Assembly: GCA_052390515.1 (NCBI GenBank)
Contig: JBQTGV010000124.1
Span: 1-47,509, forward strand
Source of the DNA: Candidatus Eiseniibacteriota bacterium
GTDB lineage: Bacteria; ARS69
DNA: 47,509 nucleotides
Direction: 5' to 3'
Position numbers and translations under genes: made by a program. Shown piece after piece: positions 27,619 to 30,309 of this stretch. The notes under the pieces were generated by a model. That model did not search any database. It was given only the letters and a program-made list of their open reading frames with translations, and had not been told where the DNA came from. Within the stretch, counting starts at the first letter, position 1; every line of letters starts with the position of its first letter.

Positions 27619-29103
27619 CTACGCGGGGCCCCGTCGCCCCCGCCCCAGTGTGGGGTCCGCGGCGCTCACCACCGGGATCGGCGCGGCCTCCCCGGCGGGC
27701 AGCCGCTTCTCCCGATCGGGGAACAGCTGCCGTTCGGGACCGTAGCGTTCCTCGAGCTTGCGCATCACGTGCTCCTGCAGGATCCGCGAGTTGTAGCGGT
27801 CGGAAGTATACATCTCGAGCTCGGCGACGTCGATCTCGTCGAACAGTCGGGCGGACTGGTGCAGGTCGATGAGCGCATCCACGACCTCGGCGAAGAACTG
27901 CGTGCCGGAGTGGCGGCGCAGCTCGTCGTAGGCCGTGTCGCAGTCCAGCCCCTGCCGGTAGGGACGGTCGGAGGTCATCGCGTCGAAGGCGTCCACCACC
28001 ATGATGATGCGGCTGCCGACCGGGATCCGCTCGGGGGGGAGTCCGCGCGGGTAGCCCTTGCGGTCGGGCTGCTCATGGTGGCAATAGACGATCTCCGCGG
28101 CGCCCTCCAGGAACTTGAGTCCCTTGAGGATGTCGTGGCCGACCTTGGGATGCGTGCGCATCAGCTCCCGCTCGCGGTCGTCGAGCTGTCCCGGCTTCAG
28201 CAGGATGTCGTGCTGGATGGCGATCTTCCCGATGTCGTGCAGCAGCGCGCCGTACTCGATCTCCTCCACTTCCTTCTCGGACACGCCGAGATGCCGCGCG
28301 ATCCGCACAGCGTACTTGGAGATGCGGTAGGAGTGCCCGCGGGTGAAGGGATCGCTCGCGTCGATGGCGGAGACGAGGGCCTGCACCGTGGCGATGTGCG
28401 AAGCCTTCGTGTCGATCCACAGCTTGAACGAGAAGCGCGCCAGGAAGAGCGGGATCAGGAACAGCGCGACGCCGACGGGCCCGATGCGCAGATGGACCAG
28501 GGCCAGCAGGATACCGAACGGCAGAAAGAAGAAGACGTGCAGGATCTCCCATTGAAAGTTCGTCTGCCAGATGCGGAAGGCGGAGATCTCCTCCTTGAGG
28601 CCGATGGCGACGGAGATGAGCCCGGTGTTCAGCAGGAAGTAAACGAGCGGGGCGACGACCAGCGGCAGCACCTGGCTCGAGCTCAGCTCGAATCCCGCGC
28701 CGGTCTTCCCGCCGAGGTGCACGTACACCAGTCCGGCTGCACCGATCGAGAGCACGATCTGGCCGAGATTGAAGGCGACCTTGTACAGCGGGTTCCGCTT
28801 CACCGCGACGTTCGTGAGCAGGTCGGACATCACGCCGAACCAGCAGGCCACGGCCGGACCGAAGATGAGGATCGCGGCGAAGTCGAGCGCGGAGGTCACC
28901 GTGACGGTCGCGCCGCCGCGCGGCAGCGGAATCGGCGAGACCGCCGCCACCGCGATCATCACGCTCCATAGGATGACGTTGGCGAGGGAACGCGGGTGCC
29001 AGTCGAGCGTGCCGAGATCGCCGCTGACGTGCATGAGCAGGGCGAGGCCGCCGAGCAGGACGAGGGCGACGAACCCCCGCAGCCAGGGATGCAGTTCGCG
29101 CAC
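27619..29103 (-). CDS. Membrane-sensor HD-GYP phosphodiesterase (multi-TM N-terminus)
   Basis: About 7 hydrophobic segments then DPFTRGHS, LLHDIGK, HHEQPDRKGYPRGL, VDAFDAMTSDRPYR, GTQF. Confidence 0.92.
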   Translation of the reverse strand: MRELHPWLRGFVALVLLGGLALLMHVSGDLGTLDWHPRSLANVILWSVMIAVAAVSPIPLPRGGATVTVTSALDFAAILIFGPAVACWFGVMSDLLTNVAVKRNPLYKVAFNLGQIVLSIGAAGLVYVHLGGKTGAGFELSSSQVLPLVVAPLVYFLLNTGLISVAIGLKEEISAFRIWQTNFQWEILHVFFFLPFGILLALVHLRIGPVGVALFLIPLFLARFSFKLWIDTKASHIATVQALVSAIDASDPFTRGHSYRISKYAVRIARHLGVSEKEVEEIEYGALLHDIGKIAIQHDILLKPGQLDDRERELMRTHPKVGHDILKGLKFLEGAAEIVYCHHEQPDRKGYPRGLPPERIPVGSRIIMVVDAFDAMTSDRPYRQGLDCDTAYDELRRHSGTQFFAEVVDALIDLHQSARLFDEIDVAELEMYTSDRYNSRILQEHVMRKLEERYGPERQLFPDREKRLPAGEAAPIPVVSAADPTLGRGRRGPA

Positions 29104-29209
29104 GACTCCCCCCTCGCCCCGGTTACCCCGGACCGAACCGAGCCTGCACGGCGTATCGGTCAGATCAAGCAGAAAATCAAGAAACAGAGCGGTCCGTCAG
29201 AAGGACTGC

Positions 29210-29246
29210 AAACGAAACCCCCGCCCGAGGGGTGTCGGACGGGGGT
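29210..29246 (-). terminator. Intrinsic terminator downstream of the small peptide gene
   Basis: Minus strand ACCCCCGTCCGA-CACCCC-TCGGGCGGGGGT, a 12-bp stem, followed by TTCGTTT. Confidence 0.75.
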
Positions 29247-29285
29247 CATCTTGGAGAATCGGCCGGTGTCCGGGTTCTTCATCAA

Positions 29286-29360
29286 CTACCAGTCGTTGCG
29301 GCCGCCGCCAAACGCGCCCAGGAGCGCGCCCACGAGGACGCCAACCCAAACCGTAATCAA
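29286..29360 (-). CDS. Unannotated 24-aa hydrophobic peptide MITVWVGVLVGALLGAFGGGRNDW
   Basis: AAGGGAG RBS 8 nt before TTG, TAG stop, followed by terminator; hydrophobic GxxxG-repeat core; below ORF-track size cut-off (alternative in-frame GTG at 29378 gives 30 aa). Confidence 0.7.
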   Translation of the reverse strand: MITVWVGVLVGALLGAFGGGRNDW

Positions 29361-29465
29361 ATCAGTCTCTCCCTTCACATGAAATCTCACTCGCAACCGC
29401 TGGCGAGTGGATCCGCTGCGCTCGGGAGTCCGCTCTCCTTGTCACCGGGCTCCGCTCGGGCCCCG

Positions 29466-30152
29466 TTACTCCGTGGGCACCGGGCCGATGTCGTATTCTA
29501 CGGCCTCCCTCGGCGGCATTCCACCGATGATCCGGTTCACGGCGTCCAGCACGGCATTAATAGCCGCTTGCGTCGGATCGTAACCAATTTCCGCGCACCC
29601 GATCAGGCGGGTTTCCTGCCGCCCGTGGGTGCGATTCACGCAGACGAGGAAGACCCTCCGCCCGCCGAGCTCCTTCTCCTCGAACTCACCCAGGGAAAAC
29701 CCCGGGTCTCCCTCGGCGAGGTTCACCACCGCCTCGAGGGTCGCCTGGGCGACGAGCCGGCGGACGTGGAACGGTGTGTTCGGCCCGGAGGCGCGCCCGA
29801 TCCCCTGGACCGGCCCGGCCGAGAGCGAGATCTCCACCTCGCAATCGCGCGGGCCTTGGTGCAGGCTCACCCCCTCGAACGAGACGCGCGCCAGCGTCAG
29901 GATCGACTGGGGTTCATCGCCCGCCTCGTACTGGGCGATGGAGATCTTGCGGTAGTCGACGTGTAGCCCTTCTTCGGCGGCGAGCAGCGTCTCGATGTCG
30001 CGGGCGATCTGCTTCGGCGAACGTCCGGCGAGCGCGGTCACATGGATCGCGGCGATCGCGCCGGATGCATCGGTCTCGATCTCGCACGACACGACGTCGC
30101 GAAGCTTGGCAACGCGCCGCTGTGCCGTCGCATACGGGGAAGGACGTTCCAT
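29466..30152 (-). CDS. Conserved hypothetical protein (RSPKQIARDIE..KISIAQ domain plus tandem LeuA-regulatory-like repeats)
   Basis: ATG 30152; IHV.A..GRSPKQIARDIET...VDYRKISIAQ; two beta-beta-beta-alpha-like repeats ending AQATLEAV and AAINAVLDAVNR. Confidence 0.85.
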   Translation of the reverse strand: MERPSPYATAQRRVAKLRDVVSCEIETDASGAIAAIHVTALAGRSPKQIARDIETLLAAEEGLHVDYRKISIAQYEAGDEPQSILTLARVSFEGVSLHQGPRDCEVEISLSAGPVQGIGRASGPNTPFHVRRLVAQATLEAVVNLAEGDPGFSLGEFEEKELGGRRVFLVCVNRTHGRQETRLIGCAEIGYDPTQAAINAVLDAVNRIIGGMPPREAVEYDIGPVPTE

Positions 30153-30299
30153 AACGCTCGTGTCCGCTGGGTTTCGACGTCTTCGGCCGGGGGCATGCCG
30201 TCCACCCTGCCGCACCACCACCCGTTGGGCCGACCGGGGCACCCATACCCCGAATCCGGGGCGCCCGCAAGCTGCGAAGAGCGACCGCCCTCGCGACCC

Positions 30300-30309
30300 A
30301 TCGTAGCAT
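30300..30309. promoter_or_regulatory. Putative overlapping divergent -10 elements (minus TGcTACGAT, plus TAGCAT)
   Basis: Both match TAnnnT, in the middle of the divergent intergenic region. Confidence 0.35.

Follow-up and report, generated by a model that had tools for sequence, protein, structure and literature searches.

A gene for a 228-residue protein of no named family (hyp228), a structured leader RNA that carries a 24-codon small open reading frame (smORF), and a gene for a predicted membrane phosphodiesterase of cyclic di-GMP (c-di-GMP) form a module that is real and conserved across phyla. We describe it from contig JBQTGV010000124.1 of a Candidatus Eiseniibacteriota bacterium, the 47,509 nucleotides of which, taken as a whole, are the window referred to below. 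The smORF as a gene, the structure of the RNA around it, the conservation of both, their linkage to the flanking genes and the presence of the stretch in RNA libraries are established by observation, and the trio points to an undescribed control circuit. A first-pass annotation of this DNA had proposed three co-oriented units here, and all three do lie on the minus strand where it had placed them (Table 1).

Linkage across genomes carries much of this finding. When one genome per species was scanned with an alignment of 43 hyp228 sequences, 584 loci were confirmed and 80 were kept, with record titles that include Bacillota, Armatimonadota, Acidimicrobiia, Candidatus Eisenbacteria, Latescibacteria, Zixibacteria, Sumerlaeota and others; the phyla with the module differ greatly in their cell envelopes. 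A first scan of genome contigs with the single hyp228 protein as query had returned nothing, and the alignment query succeeded. A homologue of the phosphodiesterase, with its MASE9 and HD-GYP domains, follows hyp228 on the same strand within 1.5 kb in 58 of the 80 loci and lies upstream and divergent in six, all from Acidimicrobiia. The first-pass annotation had suggested that such proteins neighbour transmembrane HD-GYP genes in other phyla, and had named neighbourhood mapping and a scan for a small hydrophobic ORF as checks: the suggestion holds for 64 of the 80 loci, and at least 57 of those 64 have the smORF, 52 among the downstream loci by the criteria of our script and five among the divergent ones. 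Two other downstream loci (L067 and L087), beyond the 52, have shorter ORFs ending in KAGW. The remaining loci comprise seven in which purM stands directly 3′ of hyp228 (no smORF and no RNA motif), five with other contexts (a smORF in one) and four that run into contig ends (a smORF in two). Closer to the window, hyp228 is present in all 11 other genomes sampled from its family, which represent seven genera, and in one of 29 genomes of other families.

Two exceptional arrangements help to show which parts belong together. In five Acidimicrobiia loci the RNA and smORF sit directly before the HD-GYP gene, on the strand opposite hyp228, and the small gene can thus be said to travel with the phosphodiesterase. 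In locus L018 (genus g2, of the window's family) a 4.5-kb block of opposite-strand genes (1323–5845), which encodes a DtxR-type repressor that includes a FeoA domain and, besides it, a FeoB-type ORF with Gate and FeoB_C domains, parts an intact RNA and smORF from the HD-GYP gene; on a short contig of the same genus (L017) no HD-GYP gene occurs within 2.2 kb after the smORF. Because the unit has been retained in L018 where it cannot serve as a cis-acting leader, we count this locus as evidence that it acts in trans. As a separate observation, the wider gene order of the window (25426–32472), namely a pfkB-type kinase, hyp228, the RNA with its smORF where present, HD-GYP, purM and a sigma-54 regulator, is retained in loci L014–L024, L034, L039, L059, L060, L067, L087, L097 and L100, and extends far outside the window's family, to records labelled Eisenbacteria and Latescibacteria.

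The smORF is under purifying selection at the protein level. A mechanical call of the frame gives 36 residues from a TTG (29286–29396); the internal TTG at 29360, which lines up with the start codons (ATG, GTG or TTG) of smORFs in the relatives and is preceded by the Shine-Dalgarno sequence GAAGGGAGAG at 29367–29376, gives the 24 residues MITVWVGVLVGALLGAFGGGRNDW. In all 12 family loci, the window included, the smORF lies just downstream of hyp228 and ends in GGRNDW, and the last six codons (GGC GGN CGN AAC GAC TGG) differ at third positions only, with a proportion of synonymous changes (pS) of 0.40 and of nonsynonymous changes (pN) of 0, so that the peptide gene suspected in the first-pass annotation is a genuine one. 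Among 17 Desulfosporosinus-type smORFs, all different in DNA, pN/pS is 0.29 overall, 0.17 in the hydrophobic part and 0.50 over the last four codons, and pN is 0.075 in the hydrophobic part and 0.41 in the tail. Across phyla the frame, the Shine-Dalgarno-preceded start codon and the position of the stop are retained while the nucleotide sequence is not. Seven of eight peptides tested are missing from a collection of 15 billion proteins, and the eighth is present there without a name.

The encoded peptides, of 16–43 residues across carriers, each hold a single hydrophobic helix of membrane-spanning length in a protein of fewer than 50 residues; the best 12-residue Kyte-Doolittle windows score 2.2–3.0 in 53 smORFs, which the script had selected on a score above 2.2. 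The ends of the peptides vary among lineages. A distant genome (G026) has a small ORF that ends in KTNW, the smORF of L087 (~5885–6050) carries three G-K-(A/G)-G-W repeats, Armatimonadota-type and related smORFs end in Trp or Tyr followed by a proline-rich tail (for example ...IWPPKP or ...EIYPPPKPPPQPPAASY), and variant ends are found in L030, L040, L042, L068, L072, L073, L079 and L084. Of the claim that the peptide gene has a ribosome-binding site and a terminator of its own, the first half stands; a terminator-like hairpin is also present, but such sites are not enriched in the region (two found, against 1.4 ± 1.3 in shuffled sequences). Most of the 11 family loci compared, though not L015, nevertheless have a GC-rich hairpin with a T run at the aligned position.

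The leader that precedes the smORF is marked by short AGCG boxes and by helices that covary. Tandem boxes of the form (CC)GAGCG-R-AGCGG stand upstream of every smORF, followed in most lineages by a hairpin (P2) with a UAGCGGA loop; in 19 aligned leaders the AGCG-N-AG of the tandem boxes and the AGCG of the hairpin loop are invariant, and each of 53 listed leaders has at least two AGCG. Nearly all of 51 single-sequence folds contain a helix (P1) in which the flanks of the boxes are paired either to the Shine-Dalgarno or to the spacer that leads up to the start codon. A covariance model built from eight Clostridia-type leaders without the window (R1) gave 37 matches in 90 sources at E ≤ 1, including loci that the ORF heuristic had missed, and each match is followed by a smORF. 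In the alignment of these 37 sequences, 94.2% of cells are paired against 33–50% when the partners are slid by 1–3 columns, both sides of a pair have changed in 112 cells against at most 37 with slid partners, and covariation is seen at five of five pairs in P2 (95.5% of cells paired) and seven of nine in P1, figures that are flattered because the alignment was fitted to the model.

A second model with the window in its seed (R2) matches the window at 42.4 bits (E 2.4e-06), finds nothing else in the window's genome at E < 1, and has one match each in 59 of the 90 sources at E ≤ 0.1. Applied to 151 genomes from the phylum of locus L088, it matched exactly once in each of 33; hyp228 homologues occur in 70 of these genomes, and in 31 of the 33 RNA-positive ones the RNA lies directly 3′ of hyp228 on the same strand, the two exceptions being among the weaker matches. 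The model is insensitive: of 20 genomes inspected among the 39 with hyp228 and no RNA match, 11 do have AGCG boxes, a smORF and HD-GYP. RNAalifold returned no structure from a plain MAFFT alignment of 19 leaders because that alignment is not structurally consistent, and covariance models were used instead.

Leader and smORF are together enclosed by a long-range helix (P0) of 9–18 bp. The helix has a GGCCGAC/GTCGGCC core that is conserved in part, shows many compensatory variants and, in 36 of 54 loci, beats all 30 shuffles. Its 5′ arm, in the window's family, falls within the last hyp228 codons and its 3′ arm 13–30 nt past the smORF stop; covarying equivalents of it are seen in the family loci and in most distant ones. 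In Rfam 15, which includes the c-di-GMP-I and -II riboswitches, the only match of window positions 28900–29700 at E ≤ 10 was a chance one to pRNA (14.4 bits); eight distant loci had no match at gathering scores, and L096 (5550–6000) had one chance match at E ≤ 10. ARAGORN found no tRNA or tmRNA in 28800–29800, and a reading of the AGCG boxes as tRNA-like or as a T-box was dropped because nothing supported it.

Sequences from this unit are also present in RNA libraries. Five metatranscriptomic runs from five studies hold 5–9% of the sampled words of 28900–30200, and contigs from four of them were aligned. One 188-nt contig (X2, record 4) lies wholly on 29277–29464 with three differences, 119-nt contigs from X3 and X4 lie on 29278–29396, and a 105-nt contig from X3 on 29367–29471; the summed word depth reaches 170.8 in X4. 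In contigs of 215–240 nt from two soil studies the only matching parts are the GGRNDW codons (29286–29306) and the tandem boxes (29413–29435), with ~110 unlike letters between them; these contigs appear to be relatives' versions of the same RNA and smORF unit. Neither hyp228 nor HD-GYP is covered or reached by any RNA-library contig, although the uncovered parts carry no evidential weight, and the fact that several contigs from different studies stop near 29277–29278 and 29464–29471 is at most a weak hint. We limit the claim to presence in the RNA libraries of four studies, and assert neither a separate RNA species of ~195 nt, nor processing, nor a level above that of the flanking genes, because contigs cannot show strand, ends or level and because DNA can occur in such libraries.

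The 494-residue product of the third gene is a predicted membrane c-di-GMP phosphodiesterase, in keeping with the first-pass description of a membrane protein with an intact HD-GYP domain. Its MASE9 domain (PF20972, residues 43–224) scores 35.5 bits against a Pfam gathering cut-off of 24.3, and in a genome-wide search 37.8 bits as the sole MASE9 match in the genome, while residues 243–403 match HD_5 at E 2.1e-32. The metal ligands of the HD superfamily and the HHExxDGxGYP motif are in place, and H257, H289, D290, K293, H318, H342-H343-E344, G350-Y351-P352 and D371 are invariant columns among 30 homologues. The window's motif reads HHEQPDRKGYP, with an Arg (28060–28062) where at least 90% of the 30 homologues have G348; close family relatives retain the Gly, unlike the window. 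Because the genome also has five GGDEF-domain matches, c-di-GMP is probably made in this organism. Upstream of the gene the block CTTGATT-N17-CCGATA is conserved in an alignment of family intergenic regions; a scan with the sigma-70 consensus does not pick it up, and it may be a promoter of non-consensus type.

MASE9-HD-GYP enzymes of the same architecture have been described as TM1467 of T. maritima and HdgA of S. venezuelae (bioRxiv 10.1101/2021.11.05.467447; PMC6205966), and binding of a ligand to MASE9 within the membrane has been proposed (bioRxiv 10.1101/2021.11.05.467447). The accessible part of that MASE9 preprint reports no conserved neighbour, small ORF or leader RNA, and the conserved smORF and RNA found here set the present loci apart from those accounts. 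A tandem second, more divergent MASE9-HD-GYP-like gene was seen in the Thermincola-type loci L038, L053 and L076 and in the Acidimicrobiia loci L089, L094, L098 and L102, an arrangement that resembles the S. venezuelae hdgA–hdgB pair as it appears in the accessible part of its description (PMC6205966).

The first gene belongs to a family of 1305 cluster representatives (exhaustive HMMER search, E ≤ 0.001). Its mechanical ORF begins at a GTG at 30242 (258 residues); the ATG at 30152 gives 228 residues, a length that agrees with most of 56 homologues from a word-indexed search (226–231 residues, coverage up to 100%). The earlier view of it as uncharacterized stands, in that no Pfam family above cut-off and no NCBIfam model matches it; a search of PDB sequences with the family profile returned only polynucleotide phosphorylase at E 0.11, and an ESM Atlas search only unnamed ‘hypothetical protein’ clusters. 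An AlphaFold2 model (predicted local distance difference test score, pLDDT, 93.1) has two domains, an α-β-β-α-β domain at residues ~8–75 and a C-terminal domain of two β-β-β-α units at residues ~88–210. Foldseek matched the model to M. tuberculosis LeuA (E 1.1e-05, probability 1.00), and VIA-align placed residues 88–210 on the regulatory domain of isoleucine-bound citramalate synthase (3f6g_B; Z 9.1, root-mean-square deviation 3.1, 109 of 115 residues) and the C-terminal domain on that of leucine-bound LeuA (3fig_A; Z 7.6). In the model, then, the C-terminal half resembles the LeuA/citramalate synthase regulatory fold, a similarity of fold only. The N-terminal domain gave generic α/β matches at Z 7–8, a common range, to the C-terminal subdomain of adenylate-forming enzymes, the C-terminal domains of cation-diffusion facilitators and EscJ, from which we draw no function, and the first half of the C-terminal domain is also similar to the double-stranded-RNA-binding-like domain of ribosomal protein S5 (Z ~7).

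According to the titles of their PDB entries, the regulatory domains in question (3f6g, 3fig) bind Leu or Ile, and the last 120 residues of hyp228 are modelled with the same two-fold β-β-β-α arrangement. Unlike in LeuA and citramalate synthase, the domain of hyp228 stands alone, behind a different N-terminal domain and without a catalytic barrel, and unlike proteins of the LeuA_dimer family (PF08502) the window's hyp228 has no sequence-level match to the Pfam model, although three of 43 hyp228 relatives do (best E 1e-07).

Table 1. Coordinates of the module and of its elements in the window.
Feature	Position	Strand	Remarks
hyp228, 228-residue protein	29466–30152	minus	ATG at 30152; without Pfam or NCBIfam family
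AGCG boxes of the leader	29447–29459, 29425–29438, tandem CCCGAGCGCAGCGG 29413–29426	minus	invariant columns in aligned leaders
P2 hairpin, stem CACTCG/CGAGTG, loop CCAGCGGTTG (third AGCG box)	29386–29410	minus	minimum-free-energy folds and covariation
Covariance-model match (boxes, P1, P2, Shine-Dalgarno 29367–29376, start codon)	29357–29426	minus	R1, R2
smORF, 24 codons and stop, TTG start	29286–29360	minus	hydrophobic helix, then GGGRNDW; kept in 12 of 12 family loci
P0 5′ arm ATCGGCCCGGTG	29478–29489	minus	within last hyp228 codons; pairs with 29258–29268, one bulged base
P0 3′ arm CACCGGCCGAT	29258–29268	minus	17 nt past smORF stop
Intrinsic-terminator-like hairpin (29233–29217) and T tract	29210–29247	minus	after the smORF unit
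Stretch under RNA-library contigs, four studies	29277–29471	not resolvable	leader and smORF
Promoter-like element CTTGATT-N17-CCGATA	29152–29181	minus	before the HD-GYP gene, between terminator and start; in most family loci
MASE9 and HD-GYP phosphodiesterase, 494 residues	27619–29103	minus	MASE9 ~28432–28977, HD-GYP/HD_5 ~27895–28377

How might these parts work together? We lean, tentatively, toward a reading in which the unit serves as a small mRNA of its own: the P1/P2/P0 fold, together with a factor that recognizes the AGCG boxes, would gate translation of a membrane micropeptide, and this product would act on MASE9. The 195 nt between hyp228 and HD-GYP would then be an autonomous, structured, transcribed message that encodes a single-pass micropeptide of 24 residues. 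In the resting fold the leader would pair the Shine-Dalgarno region with sequence flanking the three AGCG boxes (P1 and P2) and P0 would close the whole unit, an occlusion and closure through which translation would be gated, and a trans-acting factor reading the boxes would open the ribosome-binding site. The best candidate for that factor may be hyp228, the most economical choice because it is adjacent, co-occurs with the RNA and has a fold of the small-ligand-binding kind. The micropeptide would insert in the membrane, act on the MASE9 domain of the adjacent HD-GYP enzyme and so tune c-di-GMP hydrolysis, much as small membrane proteins modulate sensor kinases. A model of the complex of MASE9 residues 1–240 (30-row alignment) with the 36-residue ORF (11-row alignment) scored 0.31, the mark being 0.32, and weighs neither for nor against binding. 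That the smORF is translated, that its product inserts in the membrane and acts on MASE9, and which factor binds the RNA are steps that we infer, and the last of them is the weakest. In a bolder version, which we consider rather improbable, hyp228 would be the first ligand-gated RNA-binding regulator of a new class: on binding a small molecule it would recognize the AGCG boxes of the dedicated small mRNA and so allow a micropeptide to be translated, which would be the intramembrane ligand of MASE9 and set c-di-GMP turnover in many phyla.

Several observations weigh against an RNA-gated micropeptide with hyp228 as its switch. Relatives of hyp228 stand upstream of secA (L129) and spoVS (L123), both Pfam-confirmed, without an AGCG leader, and RNA binding is not required of the family, because relatives precede secA, spoVS and purM; such paralogues in other contexts weaken the candidacy of hyp228 as the RNA-binding factor. 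The window's own protein lacks a LeuA_dimer match even at E ≤ 0.1. In L034, L039 and L060 hyp228 abuts HD-GYP with neither smORF nor RNA, and the enzyme can thus manage without the peptide. As to the RNA, beyond the flattered covariation figures, the model built without the window sees the window only at 20.3 bits (E 0.098), and single-sequence folding of the window's RNA is unexceptional (z −0.52 over 195 nt and −2.34 over 296 nt). As side observations on these other contexts, the secA and spoVS loci come from Bacillota-type genomes and are without HD-GYP (L129, 34–3099; L123, 1267–3180), and in L118, L126, L128 and L130 the ORF after the hyp228 relative opens like that of L129 (LLKxxxDDNxRExxxL).

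The chief rival, which we regard as plausible but less likely, makes RNA and smORF together a translation-coupled attenuator of the HD-GYP gene, in which, once the ribosome-binding site is open, a ribosome at the smORF stop blocks P0 or the terminator, transcription or translation continues into HD-GYP, and the peptide is a by-product or an arrest sequence. The unit does stand immediately 5′ of HD-GYP in 52–54 of the 58 co-oriented and five of the six divergent loci, its Shine-Dalgarno is occluded, and many Bacillota loci have the 3′ arm of P0 2–20 nt past the stop followed by a T-rich run (as in L105, L088, L076 and L053), a layout that resembles a translation-sensitive attenuator, favours this rival and counts against our own preference. 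The smORF tails of L030, L040, L072 and L084 are proline-rich, and proline runs slow ribosomes. A sensor of translation would, on the other hand, hardly need a hydrophobic helix and a G-x(2-4)-W end to be kept at the protein level across phyla, and the unit of L018 has stayed intact behind its 4.5 kb of opposite-strand genes; in the window's family, moreover, a local terminator and the promoter-like block separate the smORF from HD-GYP. That the open frame is incidental to a conserved small RNA or riboswitch-like element we hold to be the least probable account of all, even though both the structure and the boxes have been conserved, RNA libraries contain the stretch and, for seven of eight peptides, the protein collection searched holds no gene call, since variation sits at third codon positions and frame, start with strong Shine-Dalgarno and stop position have been retained across phyla.

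The first-pass annotation had drawn an analogy to agr, and a related possibility, unlikely in our judgement, is that the smORF encodes a precursor of the short-hydrophobic-peptide kind (SHP), the C-terminal residues of which are released and sensed by MASE9 outside the cell or by hyp228 after re-import. The short, often basic N-terminus, the hydrophobic core, the small residues (AGGA/GGG) and the 4–6-residue tail, often ending in Trp, would suit a pheromone, as would the adjoining cytoplasmic protein with a small-ligand-binding fold, the variable tails beside a nearly fixed hydrophobic part in the Desulfosporosinus-type peptides and the general Rgg/SHP scheme, so far as the accessible accounts outline it (PMC7564271, PMC5167397). 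The agr analogy, however, finds no support in the window: no peptide-processing or export gene stands among the immediate neighbours (a pfkB-type kinase, GT2, purM and a sigma-54 regulator), and the tail lacks pherotype-style variation. The neighbourhood likewise shows no exporter, protease or RRNPP-type receptor gene, the hyp228 model has neither helical-repeat nor helix-turn-helix domain and no Pfam family to suggest one, the alignment shows the family peptides to lack a basic N-terminus, GGRNDW is invariant in the 11 other family genomes where pheromones would diversify, and the module spans phyla whose envelopes differ greatly. Still less probable is a type I toxin-like element, in which a stably folded mRNA, with its 5′–3′ pairing and occluded ribosome-binding site, would keep a membrane-damaging peptide silent until activation. 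The small hydrophobic peptide, the long-range helix around its mRNA, the occlusion of the Shine-Dalgarno and the coverage by RNA-library contigs fit this idea, but type I toxin loci are patchy and often multi-copy, whereas this unit occurs once per genome and keeps strict synteny with hyp228 and MASE9-HD-GYP in all these phyla; a scan found no opposite-strand promoter or terminator, and the contigs cannot show strand. Control by mRNA folding of this kind is known for H. pylori aapA1, according to the accessible parts of its descriptions (PMC5416894, PMC6733600).

The module matters for what it adds to the c-di-GMP network. MASE9 is a widespread membrane sensor domain without a known signal, and of the two halves of c-di-GMP degradation that of the HD-GYP enzymes is the less well understood. 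A conserved membrane peptide missed by gene callers is a concrete candidate partner for MASE9, and with it come an RNA motif that Rfam lacks and a family of more than 1000 protein clusters without a Pfam model, the RNA, peptide and hyp228 being genetically linked in Bacillota, Armatimonadota, Actinomycetota (Acidimicrobiia), Eisenbacteria-like lineages and others. Were the RNA-gated micropeptide to prove right, second-messenger turnover would be set by a peptide the synthesis of which is gated by RNA, and surveys of c-di-GMP networks would be overlooking such components. Cultivable carriers exist among Desulfosporosinus, Thermosediminibacter and relatives of Thermoanaerobacter.

Full-text literature searches on MASE9, on small proteins or RNA motifs with HD-GYP and on HdgA returned no description of the smORF, the RNA or the protein family, and each known system shares only part of the arrangement. 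From agr the module differs in that its candidate receptor is a phosphodiesterase rather than a kinase, in a neighbourhood without processing or export genes. Rgg/SHP and ComR/ComS, in their accessible accounts (PMC7564271, PMC5167397), likewise feature unannotated hydrophobic peptide genes of ~20–35 codons beside a possible cytoplasmic receptor, but here we see no RRNPP receptor (tetratricopeptide repeats with helix-turn-helix), exporter or protease gene, the family tail does not vary, and the peptide gene, set within a structured RNA, is linked to that of a membrane phosphodiesterase. The type I toxin mRNA aapA1, again so far as the accessible text goes (PMC5416894, PMC6733600), also carries a hydrophobic peptide on a tightly folded message with long-range pairing and an occluded ribosome-binding site, whereas the present unit is single-copy, sits in a fixed neighbourhood across phyla and has no antisense partner that we could see. 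The modulators MgrB and SafA of PhoQ, in the accessible parts of the reports on them (PMC2789325, PMC8404706), are likewise tiny single-pass membrane proteins, encoded with or controlled by their signalling system, with a proposed action on the membrane or periplasmic part of a sensor; their target is a histidine kinase where the candidate target here is a MASE9-HD-GYP phosphodiesterase, MgrB at 47 residues is about twice the size of the 24-residue smORF peptide and unrelated to it in sequence, and a dedicated structured RNA surrounds the smORF. Closest among published concepts is the family of C. difficile small membrane proteins behind c-di-GMP riboswitches; in that family, too, a structured leader RNA controls protein synthesis as part of a c-di-GMP network. 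The C. difficile proteins are longer, have several helices (helix 4 spans residues 40–57), follow a riboswitch of known class, are present in more than one copy and control sporulation, whereas the RNA here has no Rfam match and the gene is single-copy and linked to a phosphodiesterase, so that a similar concept is realized with another RNA, another protein and another output.

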